Positions 593 through 17,900 of a DNA stretch of 18,720 nucleotides are shown piece after piece (the stretch's first letter is position 1; the number at the start of each line of letters is the position of its first letter). The position numbers and the translations under genes are program-made. The stretch is from a virus (taxonomy: Duplodnaviria; Heunggongvirae; Uroviricota; Caudoviricetes). Below the pieces are notes generated by a model. That model searched no databases. It had not been told where the DNA came from and was given only the letters and a program-made list of their open reading frames with translations. Location: positions 1 to 18,720 of IMG/VR virus record IMGVR_UViG_638341086_000012; one strand, written 5' to 3'.

Positions 593-786
593 AGCGACCT
601 CCCTTAACGCAGTGCTGATGTTATTCTAGGTCGTGCTGGCTATAATTCCAACTAACACTTCGTTTTAAGCGAATAGCAGATAGTCGAGTTATCATGTTAT
701 TAGCCAATAAATATACGTGGTAAAAGCTCTTTCTTCGATTTAAAATGTATCTGGATAGTAAATATCTTACGTTAAAGGAAATTGTT

Positions 787-1107
787 ATGGATTTTTTATC
801 TTCGGCGATACTTTCTGGCATAGTTTATGACATGCTTAAACATCATGTTTCGATTACTGCAACTTCAATAAAAGAAAAGTTAAAAAATTGGGTTATTGAT
901 GAGGCTGTAGCCCCTGCTTTAGCTAAAGAGCTTGAAAAACTGTCTTTGAACGATGAAATGAGTGAAATAGCAATTGAAAGAAAACTATTGGATAGTAGTG
1001 AAATTCAAAAAATACTCTCGTCTATAAAACCTCATGCAGCAACTGTCATTATTCAAAACCATAGTGGCACTGGTGATAATATTGGTGGAAATAAAATTAC
1101 GAGGTAG
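787..1107 (+). CDS. Hypothetical small protein (about 106 aa), first gene of the AT-rich cargo operon; no recognisable family
   Basis: ORF-track frame 745..1107. ATG at 787 is preferred because AAGGA at 775-779 sits 7 nt upstream; ATG at 745 has no SD. Very AT-rich relative to flanking phage genes. C-terminal motif IQNHSGTGDNIGGNKI recurs at the N-terminus of the next gene. Confidence 0.5.
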   Translation: MDFLSSAILSGIVYDMLKHHVSITATSIKEKLKNWVIDEAVAPALAKELEKLSLNDEMSEIAIERKLLDSSEIQKILSSIKPHAATVIIQNHSGTGDNIGGNKITR

Positions 1108-1112
1108 TGTCT

Positions 1113-3905
1113 ATGGATAACATTCATAGCTGCAGTTCAATTAGTCAAAATCATACCGGAACAGGCCATAATGTTGCTGGTAACTTAATTATATACAATA
1201 GTGATAATGTTGATTATGCGACTGAGTTAGCGATTGCTGTTTTAGTCGGTTGCTGGGATGAAAAAAATAATGGTGATATTGATATAATTACAAGCCTTAT
1301 TGGCGAGTCATATGACAGTTGGATTCGAAAATTAAGAATAATTGAAGGGATGCAAGATAGTCCTTTGATTCATGAGAGAGGTTCTTGGAGTTTTAAAGAT
1401 AGAATACAATCATTTCAAACGGTATCGTCAAGATTATTCGATGATCATTTGGATTTGTTTCGGACGACTGTTGTATCCGTTTTTAAAACTATCGACCCAC
1501 AATTTGAACTGGCACCTGAAGAGCGTTATGCAGCAGTAATTTATGGGAAGGTTTTACCACACAGCCGATTAATAAGGAAAGGACTATCCGAAGGGTTGGC
1601 ATTAGTTGCAACAAAGCAAGAGTTACTTACTAATTGCTCAAAATATAAAGGGCAATATTGCGCCTCAAGTGTGGTTAAAGAGGTTTTTTCGGCTTCTAGC
1701 TGGCAATTATGGGCTAGTACGCAAGATATTCAAGTTATGCTTGCGGAAAGTGCTCCTGACTGTTTTATCGACGAAGTGGAAAATGCTGCATCTCACCAAG
1801 ACAAGCCATTTGATTCACTTTTTGCACAGGAAGGTATCGGTGGTATTTCAGGTCGGAATTATATGACAGGACTGCTATGGGCTATTGAAGGATTAGCTTG
1901 GGCGCCTAACTATTTATCTCGCTCTTTAGTAATATTAGGGGAGCTGGATAGCCATGATCCTGGTGGCAATTGGGCTAACAGGCCACTTAACTCGATAATC
2001 AACATATTGTTACCATGGCTTCCTCATACTACAGCTGATATAGATAGACGTATTGCTGCTTTCAACGCATTGGCAAGGGAGTGGCCCGATACAGCATGGC
2101 GTGTTTTAGTTCAGTTGCTACCCAACAACACGCAAGTAACATCTGGCACACATATTCCAACTTTTAGAAACTTTATTCCTAACGGTTTTAATAAAAGGCC
2201 ATCGGGTGATGAGTACCGTACTCAGATTGAAATATACACTCAATTAACAATTGAATTGGCAAGTAAATCATCATTAAGACTTGTTGATTTAGTTGAAAAT
2301 ATTGGTAGATTAGCGCCATTTAAATTCGATGATGCAATTAAACTATTGTATGATTTTTCTAAAAAAACAGATAGTGCTGAATTGAAGTTAGCGGTGTGGG
2401 AAAAATGTTTAGAAGTTTATAACAAAAACAAAAGATTCTCAGGTGCTTATTGGGCAATGCAACCAGAACAAAATGAAAAAATCAAAGATGTTTCTACAGT
2501 CTTGAAGCCCGAAAATCCTATGCTTTATAGCAAGCGACTTTTTGCACAAAACAATTACTTCCTATTTGATGAAAATGGAAACTGGCGGGACCAAGAAGAA
2601 AGGTTGACAAAAGAACGAGGGCAATCAATATACGAAATATATGCTATTAATGGTATTGATGGAGTCTTAGAATTCTCTCTATCTATTGAAAGGCCTGAGT
2701 TTGTTGGTAGTAGCCTGGTCGCAGAAGATCTAGAAATTCCTTTAGATATACTGAAAAAACTTATTGTTAGTGATATTAAAAAGGAAAATTCTCTTGCTTC
2801 TGGTTATGTACAGGCTAAAAACTACAGAGAAGGAAAATCATGGGTGTTGACAGTTATTAATGACTGGAGTGCTCAAGAAAAGATTGCTTTTTTTCTTTTG
2901 TTACCGTTTAAAAAAGAAACATGGGATGCATTAAACGCTTCATTTGATGATTTTCCTTTCGAGTATTGGAAAAATACTCTTGTTAATGCATACAGCTGTG
3001 ATTCAACGGAAGAAATTTATTTTGCTATAGACTGCTTGATTAAAGTAGACCGTCCCTTGATGGCAATAGATTGTTTATCTAAAATTTTGCATATCGATAA
3101 TTCAGTTGATAGCAGTAAGGTTGTGCTTGCTCTATTGCAATCAATTAGAACCACAGAAAATATTGAGCGATTTGATATTCACTCATTTAATGAACTTGTG
3201 AATTATATTCAAAATGATAACACTGTTTCAGATGACGACTTAGTAAAGATTGAATGGGCATACCTACCTGTAATTAACAGGGGGGCTAATGATTCGTTGC
3301 ATCCTCAAGTATTAGAGAAAAAACTTGCAAGTGAACCCAGTTTTTTTTGTGAAGTCATTCAATATGCGTATCGATCAGAATTTCAAAAAGCAAGTAAAGA
3401 ACTATCTGAAAGTGAAATAAATATTGCCAAAAACTCACTCTATTTACTTGATGATTGGAAAAAGATTCCGGGTGTTGATGCTGAAGGCAAGTTTGATGTC
3501 AATGCGTTTAATAACTGGTTTGATTTTGTCCAAACAGAATGCGAAAAGTCAGGCCATTTAGATTTTGCTTATCATAGAATTGGAAGCATATTAATTTTTA
3601 GCCCTGCAAATGACGAGCATTGGATACTTCCAGAACTGGCCGAGTTTTTGAATAGACGTGAACTTGATAAAGTGCGTACTGGTTATAAGAATGCGATAAT
3701 AAATTCGCGTGGTGTCTACATTGTTGACCCAGAAGGTAAACCGGAATTGGAGTTGGCCCAACAATATCACACTAAGTCTGATGCAATGGAACTTCTAGGC
3801 TTTCATCGATTTGCCCGAATTCTTCGAGAGTTAGCTCATGAATACCAAGCGGAAGCTGAGTTGATAATAGAACAGCACAGTAAAAAAAAGATTGCTGAGA
3901 TTTAG
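1113..3905 (+). CDS. Large hypothetical protein (about 930 aa), AT-rich cargo; candidate accessory or defence protein of unknown family
   Basis: Uninterrupted 2.8-kb ORF (track 1107..3905; ATG at 1113 preceded by GAGG at 1101-1104). No Walker A, no obvious nuclease motif seen by eye. Sits between gpD and ogr, which are normally adjacent in P2, and on the opposite strand. Confidence 0.75.
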   Translation: MDNIHSCSSISQNHTGTGHNVAGNLIIYNSDNVDYATELAIAVLVGCWDEKNNGDIDIITSLIGESYDSWIRKLRIIEGMQDSPLIHERGSWSFKDRIQSFQTVSSRLFDDHLDLFRTTVVSVFKTIDPQFELAPEERYAAVIYGKVLPHSRLIRKGLSEGLALVATKQELLTNCSKYKGQYCASSVVKEVFSASSWQLWASTQDIQVMLAESAPDCFIDEVENAASHQDKPFDSLFAQEGIGGISGRNYMTGLLWAIEGLAWAPNYLSRSLVILGELDSHDPGGNWANRPLNSIINILLPWLPHTTADIDRRIAAFNALAREWPDTAWRVLVQLLPNNTQVTSGTHIPTFRNFIPNGFNKRPSGDEYRTQIEIYTQLTIELASKSSLRLVDLVENIGRLAPFKFDDAIKLLYDFSKKTDSAELKLAVWEKCLEVYNKNKRFSGAYWAMQPEQNEKIKDVSTVLKPENPMLYSKRLFAQNNYFLFDENGNWRDQEERLTKERGQSIYEIYAINGIDGVLEFSLSIERPEFVGSSLVAEDLEIPLDILKKLIVSDIKKENSLASGYVQAKNYREGKSWVLTVINDWSAQEKIAFFLLLPFKKETWDALNASFDDFPFEYWKNTLVNAYSCDSTEEIYFAIDCLIKVDRPLMAIDCLSKILHIDNSVDSSKVVLALLQSIRTTENIERFDIHSFNELVNYIQNDNTVSDDDLVKIEWAYLPVINRGANDSLHPQVLEKKLASEPSFFCEVIQYAYRSEFQKASKELSESEINIAKNSLYLLDDWKKIPGVDAEGKFDVNAFNNWFDFVQTECEKSGHLDFAYHRIGSILIFSPANDEHWILPELAEFLNRRELDKVRTGYKNAIINSRGVYIVDPEGKPELELAQQYHTKSDAMELLGFHRFARILRELAHEYQAEAELIIEQHSKKKIAEI

Positions 3906-4115: not shown

Positions 4116-5225
4116 TCACTCTGTTTCCGCTATCCATTCCGGGATTTTTGCCTCAAGCTCAAGCTGCGTGGTAAAACCGCTGTTATCAATGGTGTGCTCG
4201 GCTTTTGCAATAATCCAGTCCTGATTATCAATCTCGCTTTTAAATCCTGTTACCGTGCCATGCATTTCGGGGTAGAGTTCTGCACGTCCACGCGCCAGCG
4301 TGATGGAGAATGATGTGGCTCCGCGTTGTAGCTGCTGCCACTTTGCCGCCGCAGCGCGTCTTGCTGCCTGCTCGTTCTGATAAGTCTTGCGTAACACAAA
4401 CACATTTCCTTCCGCGCCTTCCATATAATCACCTTCACGGCTGCTGCTTTTCTCCTTTTTGGGTTTTGGCGGTTTGCGGCGTTTCACGCTGACTTTTTTC
4501 TTTTTCCCGTAATTAAGATCAAGCCAGTAGGCGCGTACCCCCGTATACGCCTCGCGGTCAGCAATACGGAACTGATGGCGATCGCCGCTGCTGCGTGTAA
4601 TGGCGAACGAGGGCAACGGCTGGCCCTGTGCGTTCACGCCACCACCTGGCATGATGAATAACAGATTGCCGCTTTTTACGGTGGTGATTGCGCCCAGCAT
4701 TTCCGCCATGCGCGTAAGAAAGGACATGTCGCTTTCTTCGGTCTGGTCGGCGTGGTCGATTTCGATATCCATCAGCATTTCGCTGATTTGCGGTTTCAGA
4801 CCATACCGATGAGCGATGGCGGATACCACACGCTCAACGGTCACATCATGCCAGGACACCTCACGTTTAACGTTAAATTCATCCCGAAAATCTGCGCTTC
4901 TGGCTGAAACAGTCAGCCTGTCCGGCGGTCCTTCGTGAGCGATTTCATCAACAATGTAAGTGCCTTTTTCTGTCAGCGGTTCTCCTTTCCAGCCAATGAG
5001 AACCGTCAGGCGCGCGCCCCGTGGCGGTAGCTGCAACTGACCATCTGCATCATCCAGCGTGATGGTGAGCTGGTCTGCTTCAAATCCCCGGTTGTCGGTC
5101 AGTGACAGGCTCATCAGGCGCTCTGCCACGCCTGACAGCGTTTTACCCTCCGCGAGAATATCAAAATCCGGCATTTTCACGGGGTCTGTGCCCTGACTGA
5201 GCAATTGCATGGTGGTGTCGGTCAT
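4116..5225 (-). CDS. D: P2 gpD-like late control / tail protein
   Basis: Translation (MPDFDILAEGKTLSGVAERLMSLSLTDNRGFEADQLTITLDDADGQ..., RLTVSARSADFR) matches P2 gpD as recalled. Start placed at ATG 5225 (MTDTTMQ...) because GGGAGGG lies 5-6 nt upstream; the ORF-track start at 5357 is an upstream extension. Confidence 0.88.
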   Translation of the reverse strand: MTDTTMQLLSQGTDPVKMPDFDILAEGKTLSGVAERLMSLSLTDNRGFEADQLTITLDDADGQLQLPPRGARLTVLIGWKGEPLTEKGTYIVDEIAHEGPPDRLTVSARSADFRDEFNVKREVSWHDVTVERVVSAIAHRYGLKPQISEMLMDIEIDHADQTEESDMSFLTRMAEMLGAITTVKSGNLLFIMPGGGVNAQGQPLPSFAITRSSGDRHQFRIADREAYTGVRAYWLDLNYGKKKKVSVKRRKPPKPKKEKSSSREGDYMEGAEGNVFVLRKTYQNEQAARRAAAAKWQQLQRGATSFSITLARGRAELYPEMHGTVTGFKSEIDNQDWIIAKAEHTIDNSGFTTQLELEAKIPEWIAETE

Positions 5226-5382
5226 CTGTTCCCTCCCTGTGCGGCATGGTCGCATGTGCGTGCAGAGGGGGGTACTGCTTTTTGTTGTCGCCGTGGCGGG
5301 AGAATGGCGCAGGAGTGAGATTACACGCGTGGTGGGTGATGATTGTTGCCGAATCATTTAACGGATACAAGGGGCTGAAGCT

Positions 5383-6567
5383 ATGAGTGAAACTCGTTTT
5401 CATGGTGCCCGTGTTACGGAAAATACCGACCTGGTAACAGCGATTAACGATGTTGATTCCAGCGTTATCGGTATCGTGGCAACGGCGGATGATGCGGACG
5501 CGAAGCTGTTCCCGCTGAACAAGCCCACACTGCTGACCCGCGTCAATGACGTGCTGGGAAAATGCGGGACAACGGGGACGCTTTATCGTGCGCTTAAGGC
5601 CATCGCAGACCAGGTGAGCACAAAGGTGATCGTCGTTCGCGTGGCTGAACACAAAGAAGAAGACGGAAAGACGCAGGATCAACTGGTTATCGGTGGTTCT
5701 GAGGATGACGGCAGCTATACGGGGATGTATGCGCTGCTTGTTGCAGAGCAGGATGAAAGCATCGGATACCGTCCGCGTATTCTGGCCGCGCCGGAGCTGG
5801 ACACGGAGGCTGTAACAAAATCCCTGTGCGTGATTGCAGGTAAACTGCGCGCGTTTGTGTATGCCTCATGTCACGGCTGTAACACGATGGCTGAGGCGAG
5901 TACCTACCGCCAGAAATTCAACGAACGTGAGGTGATGCTCTTATGGCCGGACTTCATCGCCTACAACCCAAAAAGTGGCAAAAACGAAACGTTCCCCGCG
6001 CCTGCCTATGCGTGCGGCCTTCGTGCGTACATTGACCATGAGCAGGGCTGGCACAAATCACTGTCCAACGTTCCGGTTAAAAATGTGCTGGGGATGTCGA
6101 GGCATGTGTTCTGGTCGTTGCAGGCCGAAGACAGCGATGCCAACAGCCTCAACAACAAAGAAATCACGACCATTATTCGTCGCAACGGGTTCCGCTTCTG
6201 GGGCAACCGCACACCGGAAACGAACGCCTACATCTTTGAGGTGTATACCCGAACCGCACAGGTGCTGGCTGATTCAATTGCGGAAGCGCAGTTTGAAACC
6301 ATCGACAGTCCACTGACGCCTGCGAACGTGAAGGATGTTATCAGTGCCATCAGGGCAAAACTGGATTCACTGGTTACTGCCGGGAAACTGATTGGCGCGG
6401 AGTGCTGGTATGACGTGGTGGATAACAGCACCACGAATTTATGTCAGGGGCGTGTGCGTATTCGCTACAAATATACGCCTGTTCCCCCGCTGGAAGATAT
6501 GGAGCTTTACCAGACGTTTACTGATGAATACTTTGAACCCGCATTTGCGGTGCTGGGAGGTGCCTGA
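5383..6567 (+). CDS. FI: Contractile tail sheath protein (P2 FI-like)
   Basis: 394-aa product with P2 FI-like blocks (FPLNKP, LRAF, YRQ, WPDF, DQEQGWHKSLSNV, IRRNGFRFWGNRT, YTPVPPLE). AAGGGG SD 8 nt before the ATG. Confidence 0.95.
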   Translation: MSETRFHGARVTENTDLVTAINDVDSSVIGIVATADDADAKLFPLNKPTLLTRVNDVLGKCGTTGTLYRALKAIADQVSTKVIVVRVAEHKEEDGKTQDQLVIGGSEDDGSYTGMYALLVAEQDESIGYRPRILAAPELDTEAVTKSLCVIAGKLRAFVYASCHGCNTMAEASTYRQKFNEREVMLLWPDFIAYNPKSGKNETFPAPAYACGLRAYIDHEQGWHKSLSNVPVKNVLGMSRHVFWSLQAEDSDANSLNNKEITTIIRRNGFRFWGNRTPETNAYIFEVYTRTAQVLADSIAEAQFETIDSPLTPANVKDVISAIRAKLDSLVTAGKLIGAECWYDVVDNSTTNLCQGRVRIRYKYTPVPPLEDMELYQTFTDEYFEPAFAVLGGA

Positions 6568-7079
6568 TGGCTGTGCCAAAACATCTTCGCTTTTTTACGC
6601 TGTTTGTGGATGGTGAAAACGAAGTGGGTAAGGTGACGTCCGTCACTCTGCCTAAGCTGACGCGCAAAACCGACAGCTACCGGGGTGGTGGCATGATGGG
6701 GGCGGTAAGTATTGATCTCGGTCTGGACGACTCCGCGCTTGATGCGAGTTTTGTTATGGGGGGAGCTGTTCGTGCGCTGTTCCTTAAATATGGCGGCACG
6801 ATTGACGGCACGCTGCTGCGTTTTGCGGGTGAATACTACACCGATGCAGAAAGCGATCTGTATGAAATCGAGATGCGCGGACGTGTGACGGAAATTGATA
6901 TGGGGGAAGCCAAACAGGGCGAAGCCACATCACACACTTACGCTGTCAAAAACACCTACTACAAGCTGAGCGTTAACGATCGCCCGCTGTGGGAAATCGA
7001 CCTGTTGAACCACATCTACCGGAAGGACGGCAAGGACATTGTGCCTGACCGTATCCGTTCCGCGCTTGGGCTTGGCTGA
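6567..7079 (+). CDS. FII: Tail tube protein (P2 FII-like)
   Basis: 170 aa; TLPKLTRKTDSYRGGGMMGAVSIDLG matches the P2 FII N-terminus. Start overlaps the FI stop (TGATG), and GGGAGG lies 8 nt upstream. Confidence 0.95.
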   Translation: MAVPKHLRFFTLFVDGENEVGKVTSVTLPKLTRKTDSYRGGGMMGAVSIDLGLDDSALDASFVMGGAVRALFLKYGGTIDGTLLRFAGEYYTDAESDLYEIEMRGRVTEIDMGEAKQGEATSHTYAVKNTYYKLSVNDRPLWEIDLLNHIYRKDGKDIVPDRIRSALGLG

Positions 7080-7134
7080 TAAGTAATATGCAGGCGGCGC
7101 AGTGCGTCGCCTCTGACTGAAAAGGAGACAACTG

Positions 7135-7509
7135 ATGAAAGACATCGATACTGAAACCCGGAATAACACCGTGGCGGATGATGTGACGGCAGGTGAGGAT
7201 ATGGCTGTCGAACGTGGCGTAAAACTGACCCGACCAATTGAGCGTGGTGGCGAAAAAATCACGTATGTGGAGATCACCGGGGCTATTGAACAGGCTGGAT
7301 CCCTGCGTGGTCTGTCGCTGTCTGATGTGCTGAATCTGAAAGCGGATACCATGTTCATGCTGTTGCCTCGCGTGACCTCGCCACGACTGGATGAAGTGAT
7401 GATTAAAAAAATGTCGTCACGCGATTTTATTCAGTTGTGCGCTGTGGCTGTAAATTTTATGAGCGAGCCAGACTCTGGCGCGAAGAGCGTGCAGGAGACG
7501 GCAGCGTAA
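7135..7509 (+). CDS. E: Tail assembly chaperone gpE-like (upstream frame of the E/E' pair)
   Basis: Position between tube and tape-measure genes; AAGGAG SD 7 nt upstream of ATG 7135; a -1 frame ORF overlaps its 3' end, as in P2 E/E' and lambda G/GT. Confidence 0.8.
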   Translation: MKDIDTETRNNTVADDVTAGEDMAVERGVKLTRPIERGGEKITYVEITGAIEQAGSLRGLSLSDVLNLKADTMFMLLPRVTSPRLDEVMIKKMSSRDFIQLCAVAVNFMSEPDSGAKSVQETAA

Positions 7510-7673
7510 TCACCCTAGTGTGCTTTGAGCACATCGAAGATCTGGTGGCAGATATCGCCGCCATTTTTAACTGGTCGCCCGCCGAAATCTTCATGATGAC
7601 GCCCGGCGAAGTGGTTAGCTGGCGTGAGCGGGCGGCACTTCGCAGCGGGAATGCAGACAATGAAGACTCTTGA
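7135..7673 (+). CDS. E+E': gpE+E' fusion made by programmed -1 ribosomal frameshift (coordinates span both frames)
   Basis: The -1 frame is open from 7407 to the stop at 7671-7673 and encodes ...HIEDLVADIAAIFNWSPAEIFMMTPGEVVSWRERAALRSG. Candidate slippery sites in the overlap are the A7 run at 7405-7411 and A AAT TTT at 7452-7458. Confidence 0.65.
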
Positions 7674-10467
7674 TATCCGGGTCGCTTTCAGCGCCGTTGA
7701 CAGGCTGACCCGGCCTGCCGAAAACGCCCGCCGCCTGATGGGGCAGTTTGGTGACTCCATCCAGCGAACGCAGGGGGCGATCAAAAATCTCGAGCGTCAG
7801 GCGCGTTCATTTGAGCGCGCCCGTGACGCTGTCAGTAAAGCGGATGCGGGCATCGTGAAAGCACGACGCCAGCTTAACGCCCTTAATCAGTTACAACGCA
7901 CGGGTACAGTGCTCAGCGAAAAACAACAAAAGCTGATGCAGCAGTTAAGCACCCGGCTTGAACGCCTGAATGAATCGCGCACACGGGAAATTCAGAAAAT
8001 GCGGGAGCTTGGCGGAGAACTGAAACGCCACGGCATTTCCCTGACAGGCAGCGATAACACCATTCAGCAGGCCATCAGACGCACCGAACAATACAACAAC
8101 CAGCTTGAACGCGAACGGCAGGCGCTTGCGCGTGTAACGCAGGCGCGTGAGCGGTATTCGCGCGCGCAGGAAACAGCGGGAAAACTGAAAACAGGTGGTG
8201 CGCTGGCAATTGGTGCGGCAGCGGCGGGCGGCTATGCTGCCGGGCGTTTTTTGCAGCCTGCGATCGGGTTCGGCAAAGAGATGTCCCGCGTTCAGGCACT
8301 GACGCGAATCGACAAAAACAGCCCGCAGTTTAAGGCGCTGCGTGAGCAGGCGTTAAAACTTGGCTCTGAAACACAGTTTACTGCGAGTGATGCCGCCAGT
8401 GGGCAGAGCTTTCTGGCAATGGCTGGTTTTACTCCGCAGGCCATTCAGGCCGCATTGCCCGGTGTTCTTAATATGGCGCTGGCAGGCGGCGTCGAACTCG
8501 GCGAGACGGCTGATATAGGCTCCAATATCCTCACACAGTTCAACCTGACAGCCGATCAAATGGACCGGGTGGGCGATACGCTGACAGCAGCATTTACCCG
8601 GACCAATACTGATTTACGCGCGCTGGGCGAAACCATGAAGTATACCGGTCCGGTTGCCGCAAAACTTGGTATCAGTCTTGAAGAAGCGGCGGCCATGGCC
8701 GGGATGCTTGCCAATAATGGTCTTCGCGGAAGCGATGCTGGCACGGCCATGCGCGCAAGTCTGTCCCGCCTTGCATCACCGCCAAAAGCTGCGGCTGATG
8801 CACTGAAAGAGCTGGGGGTGTCAGTTGCTGACGCCAGAGGCAAAATGCGCCCGATGGAGGATGTGCTGCTTGATCTCTATAAGGCGACACAAAAATACGG
8901 ACAGGTGGACCAGGTCTCCTTCTTCAAGGACATCGCCGGAGAAGAGGCGTTCGTTGGTTTGCAGACGCTTGTTGCGGCGGCTGGTTCAGGAGAGCTGCAA
9001 AAACTGACCAGAGAATTGCAGGGGGCAAGGGGAGAGGCCGATCGCGTTGCAAAAGTAATGGCCGATAATCTTGATGGGGACCTGAAAAATCTCGACAGCG
9101 CATGGGAAGGTCTTCGTATTCGCATCAGTGATCTGGTTGACGGTCCGCTGCGTTCTGTCACGCAGTGGCTCACGCGGATGCTTGAAAAAATCACCTCGCT
9201 GGCGCAGGCCCATCCGGTACTGACGCGCCAGCTACTGATAGCAGGCGGTGCGTTGCTGGCAATGACTGCAACGATTGGCTCGTTGTCGCTGGTTATTGGG
9301 GTGCTTTACGGGAAGCTGGCCACCTTGCGTATTGGTTTTGACATTCTTACCCGGTCAATGAATGTCGTCAGGGTGTTGCCTGCGCTATGGGGAATGGTGA
9401 CGGGTTCCGTTTCTTTACTGGGAGGCGCTATCGGGGCGTTGTTCAGTCCGGTTGGTCTTGTCGTTGCTGCGCTTGCCGGAGCTGCCGTTCTTATCTGGAA
9501 ATACTGGGATCCCATCAGGGCATTTTTTGCCGGGGTGTTCAGCGGGATTATGGAAAGGCTGACCCCGTTGCGCGAAACCTTTGAACGGTTTGGTCCTGTT
9601 TTTGACGCAATCGGAAGCGGGATCAGCCAGGTGTTTAACTGGTTTAAATCGCTGCTGTCACCGATGGAGTCCAGCAAGGAAACGCTGGATAAATGTACCA
9701 GTGCTGGCGAGATATTCGGTAACGTTCTTGGTGGAGCGTTACAGCTTGTTCTGACGCCTGCAAAAATGTTGCTGGATACGCTGGCGTGGATACTTGAAAA
9801 ACTCGGTGTGCTTCCGGATGAAGCGGAAAGGGCGCGCAAGAAAATCGAAGACGCACAGCGTGCGGCCATTCTTCAGGACAAGGTTGCTCTGTTTCAGGGA
9901 GACATTGCGAAAATCAATCCGCCAAAGCCTGTAGAAAATGGCAATGGCACCGGAGGTGATAAACCCAAAGACAATAAACCGCTCACAGACAGCAATATCG
10001 GTACGCTGCGCAGACTAAGCAAAATTGCTGATAACACAGGTAAGCTGGTTGATGAGACGAAAAAACGCATTGGCCCCGGCGATATTGTCTTTAAGAACCT
10101 GCCCCGCGCACTTGCTGTTCGTGGGGAGTGGCAGGAGCGGAAGATTGCGCAGGTCAGTAAGCCTGCCCCCGCAATTAATATCACCCCCGTGGTTCCGGCT
10201 CCGCTGCCTCCGGCGCTGGTCCCTGTTGTTGCGGCCAGCACCCGCCCGGTGGCGGAGGCCATACGATCACCAGTAGCATCAGTGCCTGCAACTTCCCGTA
10301 ACCGGGAGCCTGTTGCCTCCGGATTTGGTGGTGAAATTCATGTTCATCTGCATAACGTTGTTACGCAGAATCCCCACGAACTGGCGAAACTGGTCGGTGA
10401 AATGGTCAGGGCAGAAATGGAACGGCGCGCCCGTGCCGGGCGTGGCAGTTTTTACGATAAAGATTGA
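7660..10467 (+). CDS. T: Tail tape measure protein (P2 gpT-like)
   Basis: About 935 aa, coiled-coil-rich N-terminal part, central hydrophobic glycine-rich segments, Pro/Ala-rich C-terminal part; immediately follows E/E'. Start uncertain: ATG 7651 or 7660 (ORF-track frame opens at 7624). Confidence 0.9.
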   Translation: MKTLDIRVAFSAVDRLTRPAENARRLMGQFGDSIQRTQGAIKNLERQARSFERARDAVSKADAGIVKARRQLNALNQLQRTGTVLSEKQQKLMQQLSTRLERLNESRTREIQKMRELGGELKRHGISLTGSDNTIQQAIRRTEQYNNQLERERQALARVTQARERYSRAQETAGKLKTGGALAIGAAAAGGYAAGRFLQPAIGFGKEMSRVQALTRIDKNSPQFKALREQALKLGSETQFTASDAASGQSFLAMAGFTPQAIQAALPGVLNMALAGGVELGETADIGSNILTQFNLTADQMDRVGDTLTAAFTRTNTDLRALGETMKYTGPVAAKLGISLEEAAAMAGMLANNGLRGSDAGTAMRASLSRLASPPKAAADALKELGVSVADARGKMRPMEDVLLDLYKATQKYGQVDQVSFFKDIAGEEAFVGLQTLVAAAGSGELQKLTRELQGARGEADRVAKVMADNLDGDLKNLDSAWEGLRIRISDLVDGPLRSVTQWLTRMLEKITSLAQAHPVLTRQLLIAGGALLAMTATIGSLSLVIGVLYGKLATLRIGFDILTRSMNVVRVLPALWGMVTGSVSLLGGAIGALFSPVGLVVAALAGAAVLIWKYWDPIRAFFAGVFSGIMERLTPLRETFERFGPVFDAIGSGISQVFNWFKSLLSPMESSKETLDKCTSAGEIFGNVLGGALQLVLTPAKMLLDTLAWILEKLGVLPDEAERARKKIEDAQRAAILQDKVALFQGDIAKINPPKPVENGNGTGGDKPKDNKPLTDSNIGTLRRLSKIADNTGKLVDETKKRIGPGDIVFKNLPRALAVRGEWQERKIAQVSKPAPAINITPVVPAPLPPALVPVVAASTRPVAEAIRSPVASVPATSRNREPVASGFGGEIHVHLHNVVTQNPHELAKLVGEMVRAEMERRARAGRGSFYDKD

Positions 10468-10479
10468 GGAGTCATGGCC

Positions 10480-10968
10480 ATGATGATGATCTACGGCATG
10501 TTTGTTTTTGAGCTGCGTACGTTGCCGCATCAGCAGTTACAGCAAAACAAAAGCTGGCGGCATGTGAAAAATGAACGCGTTAACCGTTCAGCAAGCTGGC
10601 AGTATATCGGTGCAGGTGATGATCGCATCGTTCTTTCTGGTGTGCTTTATCCTGAAATTACAGGTGGTGAAGTGTCGCTGTCGCTGCTGACCACGCAGGC
10701 GTATACAGGACGCCCCTGGCCTCTGATTGATGGCGTCGGGCAGATTTACGGCATGTATGTCCTGACCGGAACGAATACGACCCGTTCCGAGTTTGATCGC
10801 TACGGTAAGGCGAAAAAGATAGAATTTTCACTGACTCTTGAACGCTGTGATGAGGATTTGCGGGAGCGCCTGCAATCCTCATCGTTCAGCGATATGTTGT
10901 CCGGCTTCAAAGATAAGGTGACATCATCCCTTAATAGTGCGGCCAGCTCAGTTAAGGGGCTGCTCTGA
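10480..10968 (+). CDS. U: Tail protein gpU-like
   Basis: MMMIYGMFVFELRTLPHQQLQQ...WRHVKNERVNR parallels P2 gpU (MMMVLGLFVFMLRT...). GAGGAG at 10466-10471 favours ATG 10480 over the ORF-track ATG 10474. Confidence 0.9.
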   Translation: MMMIYGMFVFELRTLPHQQLQQNKSWRHVKNERVNRSASWQYIGAGDDRIVLSGVLYPEITGGEVSLSLLTTQAYTGRPWPLIDGVGQIYGMYVLTGTNTTRSEFDRYGKAKKIEFSLTLERCDEDLRERLQSSSFSDMLSGFKDKVTSSLNSAASSVKGLL

Positions 10969-11073: not shown

Positions 11074-11124
11074 CTCTTAACCTTATAACATGTGTGGTCT
11101 GAAATAATAATTAAGGAGATTTTC

Positions 11125-11697
11125 GTGCTGTCTTACTTAATGGCAATTCACTTTGTTTTATTTGGGAAGTCTACTAATTTAAAAAACTTCTGGAAACATG
11201 AAGTAATTCGGCGAAAACGTATGGATATCTGGAGGCTTTTAAGAGAGAAAAAGCAGCGTAACCGGAATTTCCTTTTCTGGTGGCGGTTGGCTAACGAAAT
11301 GTATATTAATGGTAATAAATTACATAAGAAAGCAGCCAAAAAGTTAAACAGTAAAATAATTAACAAATTTGGTTGTGAAATAGGATTGGGAGCAAATATT
11401 GGAAAAGGGTTAACAATTCCCCATCATGCTGGAATTGTTGTTCATTTTGCTGTTGATGCGGGTGAAAATCTGGTATTACGACAGAATACTACCATTGGAC
11501 AGATAGATGGTGACATGCCTGGTTCAAGAGTGAAAATTGGTAGTAACGTTGATATCGGAGCTAATTGTTGCATCATTGGATTGTCACGTAAAATTGGGGA
11601 TAATGTAAAAATAGGTGCAATGTCTTTTATAAATAAAGATATACCATCAAACTGCACATATATAACTAAAAAGAGTGGTGTTGTATTGTATAAATAG
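11125..11697 (+). CDS. Hexapeptide-repeat (left-handed beta-helix) acyl/acetyltransferase, CysE/WcaB/LacA-like; AT-rich cargo gene
   Basis: Repeated [LIV]-G-x-x-x-x hexapeptide pattern (IGLGANIGKGLTIPHHAGIVV, KIGSNVDIGANCCIIG, KIGDNVKIGAMSFI). Strongly AT-rich versus neighbours. ORF-track frame opens at 11092; GTG 11125 is chosen for its SD. Confidence 0.75.
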   Translation: MLSYLMAIHFVLFGKSTNLKNFWKHEVIRRKRMDIWRLLREKKQRNRNFLFWWRLANEMYINGNKLHKKAAKKLNSKIINKFGCEIGLGANIGKGLTIPHHAGIVVHFAVDAGENLVLRQNTTIGQIDGDMPGSRVKIGSNVDIGANCCIIGLSRKIGDNVKIGAMSFINKDIPSNCTYITKKSGVVLYK

Positions 11698-11704
11698 AGT
11701 ACAT

Positions 11705-11745
11705 AAAGCCATCGATATTTCTGTCGATGGCTTTTTCTTTTTATT
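11705..11745 (+). terminator. Rho-independent terminator after the acetyltransferase gene; the same hairpin lies just past the stop of gene G on the other strand
   Basis: Perfect 11-bp stem AAAGCCATCGA (11705-11715) / TCGATGGCTTT (11724-11734), 8-nt loop, followed by TTTTTCTTTTTATT on the plus strand. Confidence 0.65.
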
Positions 11746-12325
11746 GTGGGGCGACTGGCCACTCAACATCCGCTGCTACTGTTGTATCAACACGATTCAA
11801 CAATACCCGATATGTCTTCCATGCAGCCAGTAACGATGCCTCTTCCTCCGTCGCAATATCCAAATCTACGGCATCCTGAAGTGGCGCAATATGCTCACTG
11901 GCTACCTGCATCAGGCTGTTTTTTGTTTCTTCTGCCTCCTGTACCCGAAACAGTTTTTCTGCTTCTGCATCTTTCACCCAGGATGTGCCGTTCCACTTCT
12001 GACACTCTCCATCCGGCGACAACCAGGTAACATTTTCCGGTAACGGACCGAGTTCAGAAATAAATAACGCGTCCCCTGATGCCACGTCATAAACAGTTTT
12101 ACCCCGATGGTCTTCAACGAGATGCCACGATGCCTCATCACTGTTGAAAACAGCCACGAAGCCAGCCGGAATATCTGGTGGTGCAATATCGGTACTGTTT
12201 GCAGGCAGACCTGTATGAGGTGGAATGTATGCATCACCTTCCCCAATAAATTCATTAGTTCCGGTCAGCAGGTTATAAATTTTTATGGTCCGTGATTGTT
12301 CACTCATTCTGAAATCCATGTTCAC
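11741..12325 (-). CDS. G: Tail fibre assembly protein / chaperone (gpG/Tfa family)
   Basis: C-terminus ...[34 protein letters not shown] is the conserved Tfa C-terminal signature as recalled; about 190 aa. GTG at 12325 or ATG at 12319. Confidence 0.85.
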
Positions 12326-12327
12326 CT

Positions 12328-13230
12328 CTACTTAATATCAGAGACAGAATATTGTTTATTGAGCGTATGGGTAGGAGTACCAATAACGATGCTACTTCCG
12401 TGGCTATGTGCGCCAGAGGTGACATTACCTACGGGATTTTCTGGATTAATCCGGTGTATATGCGAACCAGGGCGAAAACGGTTATTAGCCTGATGTTGTA
12501 TCAGTACATCATCAGCCTGATGTTCAGGGTTAATACAGATTTGCCCGGAACGAGAGCAACACGTCCGATAATCGCCGCATCCAATATATTTAGTATCCGC
12601 ATAACGGCAAACGGAATTACCCGGACAGTATGCATATGTGCCAAATACTGCCGACTGGCGAGATTGTGCGTATTCCCAGTTAATTGATTCTGTTTTTTTA
12701 TTAAAGTTATCCCATGCCTGCTTCATCTGTCGGGCAACACTTTCAAACGGCACCTGACCACATCCGGCCCCCATTGCAGGGAATACCACTGTTTTTATTT
12801 TCATGTCTGTCGTTGCGTTTTTATTGTGCTGAAAGATGGCAAGCAGAGCGGCCCAGGTTGCGTTATATACAGCGTCTGTTCCGTCAATTGTCAACGGAAC
12901 ACGCATTGTTGGCGCATGTACCAGCCAGGGGTGATGATTATGCCCCGTTTCAATGACAAATGCAGAACCTACAGGCTGTTCGCCGAGATATTCACGAAGA
13001 ATATGATTCTGAACGCGGGACTGTAACTGAGTACCGAAGAATGCGGTAATGGCGGCATCAACGCCACCATCCATCAGGCCGAAACTATTTGCCGCACTTA
13101 CCATGCAGTCAAATTCTCTGATTGTTTCAAATGGCTTTCCGACAATATTCACACTATCTGCATTTGCAAATACCTGCTTAAATGCTTCAGCCATTTCTGT
13201 TACTGGTGCAGAAAGAATGAGCGTAATCAT
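12328..13230 (-). CDS. Macro-domain (ADP-ribose-binding / hydrolase fold) protein with a Cys/His-rich C-terminal extension, inserted between H and G
   Basis: Macro-domain motif blocks seen by eye: [60 protein letters not shown]-terminal 120 aa contain CPGNSVC...[16 protein letters not shown] and His-rich [11 protein letters not shown] overlaps the H stop (ATGA at 13227-13230); GAGG SD 5 nt upstream; stop 3 nt before the G start. Confidence 0.8.

Positions 13231-16478: not shown

Positions 16479-17900
<1,422 letters not shown>

Follow-up and report, generated by a model that had tools for sequence, protein, structure and literature searches.

The E/E' locus of the window (the whole stretch of 18,720 nucleotides that was analysed) very probably contains a programmed -1 frameshift, and the heptamer A_AAT_TTT at 7452-7458 is probably the site at which the reading frame is changed. 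The assignment of the site rests on four independent lines of evidence, namely the phase of the heptamer, the open frame in relatives, the position of a switch in selective constraint and the logic of the encoded protein, all of which favour 7452-7458 over a run of seven A residues (A7) at 7405-7411. Both sequences had been named as candidates in the original prediction and both are present where it placed them, but they are not equivalent, as the A7 run is out of phase and is excluded by the relatives. The accompanying view that the site cannot be assigned from sequence alone was not upheld: comparison with relatives brackets the switch to 7450-7465, and A_AAT_TTT is the only slippery sequence inside this interval. 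Sequence comparison establishes how the genes are laid out, their homology, where constraint passes from frame 0 to frame -1, and that A7 is excluded.

The window is a piece of a prophage that is P2-like and belongs to the P88 group (Xuanwuvirus, Peduoviridae). Across 621 bases surrounding E/E', identity is 98-99% with Escherichia virus P88_4B11, Citrobacter phage Shae_phiSM (PhiSM; OR565851) and Escherichia phages 520873 and 503458, and 83-85% with P88, Chuche and 500465-2; the chromosome of E. coli O39:NM F8704-2 matches the E/E' stretch 7135-7673 (539 bp) with 100% identity. The genes follow in the order tube, E, E', tape measure and gpU (Table 1), so that E/E' occupies the location between tube and tape measure that is found in contractile-tail phages of the P2 type. 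A GGAG motif lies 7 nt 5' of the E ATG, and the tape measure ATG overlaps the end of E' by 14 nt. The -1 frame was confirmed to open directly after a TAA and to overlap the end of E, as had been predicted, by 103 nt; any shift has to fall inside this overlap, at 7407-7509. A GC-rich inverted repeat (AGGCGGCG CAGTG CGTCGCCT, 7090-7112) was noticed by eye in the 55 nt that separate the tube gene from E; no T-tract follows it.

Table 1. Coordinates of the E/E' locus and neighbouring features in the window.
Feature	Position	Strand	Remarks
Sheath gene	5383-6567		
Tail tube gene (FII-like), upstream neighbour of E	6567-7079	+	PF04985, 8e-46
Gene E, frame 0, 124-aa tail assembly chaperone (standard decoding)	7135-7509	+	ATG 7135, TAA 7507-7509
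TAA in -1 frame, upstream limit of the open -1 frame in the window	7404-7406	+	
A7 run, rejected slip candidate	7405-7411	+	Codes for Lys-Lys and the A of ATG
Open -1 frame	7407 to TGA 7671-7673	+	Overlap with E 103 nt, within 7407-7509
Proposed slippery heptamer A_AAT_TTT	7452-7458	+	X_XXY_YYZ phase of the E frame
E' segment, -1 frame after the proposed shift	7458-7673	+	71 codons plus TGA
GTG, RefSeq/PGAP start of a separate 51-aa 'GpE family phage tail protein'	7518-7520	+	
Conserved GpE (E') domain PF06528, -1 frame	7545-7652	+	Residues 47-82 of the ORF from 7407
Tape measure gene (T-like), downstream neighbour	7660-10467	+	PF10145, 1.6e-56; annotated start in relatives
gpU	10474-10968		

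The -1 ORF matched Pfam family PF06528 (Phage_P2_GpE) with an E value of 2.9e-12 and 46.3 bits (cut-off 23 bits). E itself matched the tail protein family phrog_103 at 4e-36, and its match to PF10109 (Phage_TAC_7; E 3.7e-4, 20.9 bits) was under the cut-off of 25 bits. Predicted fusions were built for the window, P88, a Reipivirus, a Novemvirus, an Elveevirus and P2 and were then aligned; as a check on the construction, the P2 construct reproduced the annotated 142 aa. All six aligned fusions match PF06528 and five of the six aligned homologues match PF10109 (best E 1.8e-18). A search of NCBIfam with E, E' and the fusion gave no match, and a search of the PDB sequences with the fusion gave nothing meaningful. 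The predicted E+E' fusion of the window has 179 aa and is composed of E residues 1-108 followed by 71 residues from frame -1 (junction ...AVAVNF|YERARLW...). It aligned with P2 E+E' end to end over both parts (BLASTP 2e-28, 33% identity) with the junctions aligned (AVAVNF|Y in the window, GKVVGF|L in P2), which bears out the identification of the locus as the E/E' -1 frameshift of P2-like phages. Although the PF10109 score of E is under the cut-off, homology to gpE is supported by this alignment, by the phrog_103 match and by the PF10109 matches of the homologues. The Phe at the slip site is invariant in 6/6 aligned fusions; it is Phe108 of the window (codon 7456-7458) and aligns with the Phe of the annotated P2 site T_TTT_TTG.

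Within the overlap of E and the -1 frame, A_AAT_TTT is the sole in-phase heptamer of the form X_XXY_YYZ, and the 21-mer around it is invariant in 80/80 near-identical IMG/VR contigs (45 haplotypes). In the long ORFs of the window canonical heptamers occur in phase 12 times per 2906 codon positions, corresponding to 0.14 expected per 34-codon overlap; an in-phase heptamer alone is not beyond chance. The region is beyond chance because of the PF06528 match, the tube/tape-measure context and the purifying selection on the -1 frame 3' of the E stop.

Two samples were used for the comparative work. Polymorphism was taken from a first IMG/VR scan, which contained only copies of 98-100% identity and is suited to the polymorphism phase and not to diversity, and diversity was assessed in a species-dereplicated genome scan (79 loci from different bacterial species). 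Between the window and P88, the ratio of synonymous to non-synonymous differences over 7405-7451 was 7:2 in frame 0 and 0:10, including a stop, in frame -1. Over 7459-7506 the corresponding ratios were 1:8 and 6:4, and over 7510-7659 they were 0:7 and 4:3. Differences silent in frame 0 alone end at 7449, and those silent in frame -1 alone begin at 7466; the frame switch therefore falls within 7450-7465. Polymorphism within the lineage of the window itself (45 haplotypes) followed the same pattern, with 5:1 in frame 0 and 1:5 in frame -1 over 7405-7451, and 1:16 and 13:4, respectively, over 7510-7659, which shows purifying selection on the -1 frame 3' of the E stop. The possibility that E' is a decaying remnant in this lineage was ruled out by the same 13:4 ratio.

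The slippery sequence of the window is not the one usual in the family. Lambda G_GGA_AAG had been taken as the yardstick for the candidate sites, but the family reference is T_TTT_TTG of P2, which has been lost here by a T>A change at 7459. P2 is annotated (NC_001895) with an E of 91 aa and a joined E+E' of 142 aa, the shift being placed at GGT TTT TTG; a published comparison of P2-like phages (PMC3091744) likewise gives TTTTTTG as the site and cites Christie et al. (2002) for the P2 E/E+E' -1 frameshift. At the homologous position T_TTT_TT(G/A/C) was found in at least 70 of the 79 loci from different bacterial species. At this conserved Gly/x-Phe-Leu position the window reads AAT TTT ATG, and no run of six T residues (T6) was found when one was sought in 7135-7673. 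That the lineage lacks the motif seemingly preferred by the family counts against the A_AAT_TTT model. The P88 group carries the decamer A_AAT_TTT_TTG, which holds both overlapping heptamers, so that the T>A change (TTG to ATG; TTTTTTG to TTTTATG) destroyed the P2-type heptamer and left only A_AAT_TTT.

The E/E' locus was found in 1373 of the 5426 complete E. coli genomes (about a quarter) and the exact site variant, defined by the surrounding 70-mer, in 598 of these 5426. An identical site sequence is present in PhiSM, which according to the paper describing it forms plaques and lysogenises E. coli K-12. Because the 21-mer recurs in 80 contigs representing 45 haplotypes, PhiSM is viable and 598 E. 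coli genomes carry the variant, the loss of T6 is neither an error nor the sign of a dying gene. A mosaic E gene was observed in E. coli C11 (NZ_CP182408.1; bases 360-500 of the extracted locus L329), the 5' part resembling the window lineage and the 3' part being of the P88 type with TTTTTTG and a -1 frame TGA; recombination within E between the two site variants can be deduced from it. As a separate observation, the PhiSM paper describes long non-contractile tails (Siphoviridae) by electron microscopy, whereas record OR565851 is classed as Peduoviridae/Xuanwuvirus and a 1-kb stretch of it contains the same tail tube, E and tape-measure genes as the window, so that morphology and genome assignment disagree.

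A second lineage without T6 is formed by Reipivirus-like Klebsiella phages (NC_049450; K. michiganensis locus L104), which were represented by ~60 IMG/VR contigs and one Klebsiella michiganensis genome. They read C_CCT_TTC_TTG, and their relatives carry C_CCT_TTT_TTG. As in the window, only the upstream canonical heptamer is left and the Phe position is the same; the heptamer is C_CCT_TTC (Pro-Phe), however, and what interrupts the T-run is a C within the Phe codon, not an A in the codon after it. The fusion of these phages shares about 50% protein identity with that of the window. Among the loci examined, loss of T6 was not seen in any that lacks a canonical upstream heptamer, bar one contig (L238; IMGVR_UViG_2822731401_000001) with T5 in place of T6 at the slip site (ACGCCTTTTTAGC); this T5 is probably a sequencing error and otherwise marks a frame-disrupted copy. 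The pattern of T6 loss suggests that the upstream heptamer is functional and sufficient. On balance, we lean towards the more general reading that the slip site of P2-like phages is not fixed: the decamer X_XXT_TTT_TTG would hold two heptamers, of which the upstream one (A_AAU_UUU or C_CCU_UUY) would be functional and sufficient, and T6 could be lost and would have been lost at least twice (in the window and Reipivirus lineages). If this is true, the slip site has in effect moved one codon along, with a different residue at the junction (F|Y here, F-L|V in P2), and the lineage of the window would be a natural experiment in which the T6 run is dispensable given a canonical heptamer one codon upstream.

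Published efficiencies in an E. coli reporter (PMC4066793 Table S3) allow the heptamers to be compared. For A_AAU_UUU the value without a stimulator was 0.07%; it rose to 0.36% when the IS911 stimulators were present and to 11.4% with the IS3 pseudoknot. The corresponding values were 0.19%, 1.4% and 23% for C_CCU_UUC and 0.12%, 0.25% and 0.77% for U_UUU_UUG (the P2 type). Motifs of the form H_HH.U_UU.Y are among the most efficient in E. coli (PMC4066793). The upstream heptamer A_AAU_UUU is thus at least as competent as the site of P2 itself. Without a stimulator it is near background (0.070% versus 0.055% for the control without a motif; PMC4066793). A stimulator of the kind that belongs to a canonical -1 PRF signal, either a 3' element 5-9 nt downstream or an upstream Shine-Dalgarno-like element, was not found in the window. 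Single-sequence folds, restricted to pseudoknot-free structures, gave downstream structures no better than shuffles (z -0.97 for the window, z -0.49 for P88), RNAalifold returned no consensus structure near the slip site for 19 distinct relatives and no Shine-Dalgarno-like stimulator is visible in the sequence 5' of the heptamer. A hairpin at 7518-7534 was considered as a stimulator and rejected, being 60 nt 3' of the heptamer and hence too far away. Given this lack of a stimulator and the near-background activity of unstimulated A_AAU_UUU, the expected efficiency is uncertain. The same objection applies equally to the site of P2, for which the published comparison (PMC3091744) likewise reports no stimulatory structure.

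Tandem -1 slippage on A_AAU_UUU, yielding E and E+E' as a pair of tail assembly chaperones, is a likely account of these observations. Most ribosomes translating E would terminate at its TAA and release the 124-aa chaperone. A minority would slip back by one base with AAU (Asn107) in the P site and UUU (Phe108) in the A site, tRNA-Asn moving from AAU to AAA and tRNA-Phe from UUU to UUU, and would then read UAU GAG CGA... in the -1 frame as far as TGA 7671-7673. The fusion so formed would keep the whole E chaperone domain and add the conserved GpE domain. Purifying selection on the -1 frame and the viability of PhiSM, with its identical site, would be indirect support for production of the fusion and a need for it. 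If E and E+E' act as P2 E/E+E' and lambda G/GT do, their ratio would be fixed; the pair would cover the tape-measure protein and bring in tube subunits while the tail is being built, and both would be absent from the finished virion. We infer the ribosomal nature of the slippage, the involvement of both tRNAs, the efficiency and the downstream role in assembly. The mechanism is no departure from known tail-chaperone frameshifting; the system is of the usual kind, with a slip sequence that is a little out of the ordinary. The products can be told apart by their predicted peptides: a shift at 7452-7458 would give the tryptic junction peptide DFIQLCAVAVNFYER (the unshifted counterpart in E is DFIQLCAVAVNFMSEPDSGAK), a shift at A7 would give NVVTR and FYSVVR and a start at GTG 7518 would give the N-terminus (M)VCFEHIEDLVADIAAIFNWSPAEIFMMTPGEVVSWR.

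An identical protein would be produced if a single tRNA slipped at the same position, with tRNA-Phe moving on U_UUU (7455-7458) and tRNA-Asn not re-pairing; the constraint data bracket the switch to 16 nt and fit either mode of slippage. U_UUU is among the few shift-prone tetramers in E. coli (0.8% with a pseudoknot; PMC4066793), and one-tRNA slippage would explain why the wider family conserves only the T-run. In the reporter the heptamer nevertheless stands far above the tetramer (11.4% versus 0.8%; PMC4066793), and both lineages that lack T6 have a canonical X_XX upstream, which is completed by a Val codon (GTA before AAT, GTC before CCT). Slippage of tRNA-Phe alone is accordingly regarded as unlikely compared with the tandem slippage set out above.

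A lower probability still is given to E' being a free small protein made from its own start, either GTG 7518, possibly by re-initiation after the E TAA, or GTG 7437. Both the window lineage and the P88 lineage keep GTG 7518, which lies 8 nt after the E stop and is the position from which databases annotate the 51-aa 'GpE family' CDS, and at 7437 a start codon (GTG or ATG) is present in both lineages. No Shine-Dalgarno sequence is visible before either GTG, however, and none within 20 nt of 7518. For 7437, which had been offered as the start that would remove the need for a frameshift, the comparison with P88 is unfavourable: over 7437-7451, up to the heptamer, 5/5 codons of the -1 frame carry non-synonymous differences, whereas frame 0 has three synonymous and one non-synonymous. 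For 7518, the -1 frame is already constrained further 5' (7:6 synonymous to non-synonymous across 7458-7517 versus 2:9 in frame 0), the motif W..ER.GDG..(V/I)T upstream of it is common to relatives at about 50% identity, and the equivalent position holds no start codon in Reipivirus-like and Novemvirus-like relatives. For P2, the annotation and the literature alike describe E' as an extension made by frameshifting.

The 51-aa 'GpE family' CDS is best read as a gene-caller artefact, because it lacks a Shine-Dalgarno sequence, constraint extends upstream of 7518 and distant relatives have no start there. The frameshift is unannotated in every record examined, including those of the P88 group and of the window lineage: RefSeq/PGAP and the phage GenBank records either give a free 51-aa gene from GTG 7518 or leave E' out, and the PhiSM record omits it entirely. 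Many annotations would be put right by a joined E+E' CDS in which the shift is set at 7458. The hairpin at 7518-7534 is a perfect 7-bp stem (GTGTGCT-TTG-AGCACAT) that starts at the GTG chosen by PGAP; it is identical in the P88 group and so shows no covariation.

A shift at A7 itself, whether by ribosomal slippage on T_AAA_AAA or A_AAA or by RNA-polymerase slippage adding one A, is hardly credible; it would swap the last 34 residues of E for -1 frame sequence. The -1 frame of the window is open from 7407, runs of A are slippery (in-phase A_AAA_AAA gave 0.4-25% in the reporter; PMC4066793 Table S3) and the run is kept across the P88 group. Read in the E codons (ATT AAA AAA ATG), however, it has the phase T_AAA_AAA, so that it is no canonical heptamer and does not suit tandem slippage; the A_AAA tetramer reached no more than 0.13% without a stimulator and 0.26% with the IS3 pseudoknot (PMC4066793 Table S3, in which the IS911 value is unlisted). 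The conservation of A7 follows from that of the residues I-K-K-M. A -1 frame TGA (CGT GAC) stands between A7 and the heptamer in all P88-type sequences examined (P88, Chuche, 500465-2 and a Salmonella locus), so that in these relatives a shift at A7 could never reach E'. Among the 80 near-identical contigs, which are 98-100% identical to the window at the level of the E protein, three (L024, L027 and L029) have a TGA at 7422-7424 through a C>T change at 7422 that is silent in E. Frame -1 is also unconstrained between A7 and the heptamer, as the P88 comparison over 7405-7451 gave no synonymous and ten non-synonymous differences, and the resulting fusion would lack SRDFIQLCAVAVNF, a segment that can be aligned with P2 E and that P2 E+E' retains. 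Transcriptional slippage at A7 was ruled out on the same grounds as ribosomal slippage there.

The preferred site at 7452-7458 can be set against known systems. In P2, as in the window, E/E' lies between FII (tube) and T (tape measure), the shift is in the -1 direction and the end of E' overlaps the start of T; both combine a gpE-type E (PF10109, under the cut-off in the window) with a PF06528 E', the Phe codon at the slip site is homologous and no stimulatory RNA structure is known. P2 slips on T_TTT_TTG, with Phe in the P site and Leu in the A site, whereas the proposed heptamer of the window lies one codon upstream (A_AAT_TTT, with Asn in the P site and Phe in the A site). The E protein of the window is longer (124 aa with an N-terminal extension, compared with 91 aa), the overlap after the site comprises 17 codons instead of six and the linker before the GpE domain is ~10 residues longer. 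P88 and its relatives (Xuanwuvirus/Gemsvirus; NC_026014, Chuche and 500465-2) have the same architecture and the same A_AAT_TTT at 83-85% DNA identity over E/E'; they differ from the window in the intact decamer, in the upstream -1 frame TGA, which the window lacks, and in an overlap of 85 nt. Lambda G/GT resembles the window in having a -1 shift near the end of the gene preceding the tape measure (Levin et al., 1993; Xu et al., 2004, 2013, 2014, as reviewed in PMC5009743), and the fixed ratio of short to long product and the presumed chaperone role described there (PMC5009743) are the same as those proposed here. Lambda differs in using G_GGA_AAG in place of A_AAT_TTT and in being a siphovirus without a sheath.

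Several further features of the window were recorded. A terminator-like hairpin followed by T5 (TGGTGGCAGATATCGCCGCCA TTTTT) lies at 7543-7568 inside the E' coding region; its stem is weaker in P88, and the hairpin probably just follows from the conserved LVADIAAIF codons. A 34-nt stretch in a CRISPR array of E. coli GmM066 (NZ_CM183652.1, 4375146-4375179) is a 100% match to E' coding sequence 7595-7628, from which it appears that a host spacer targets the prophage family of the window. Near the start of the window, 745-1107 encodes a HetE-N domain protein (PF20701, 1e-38); behind it comes an ORF of 932 aa (1107-3905) without a Pfam match, which adjoins gpD (4116-5357, minus strand); the module 745-3905 may be phage cargo or a defence module. 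This ORF contains T8 at 3341-3348, A8 at 3882-3889 and an in-phase A_AAA_AAG 20 nt before its stop. Non-structural ORFs follow gpU (11092-13230), among them a hexapeptide-repeat-like protein and a macro-domain protein (12328-13230, minus strand), and an IS-type transposase (rve; 17154-17900) lies near the baseplate J and tail-fibre genes.
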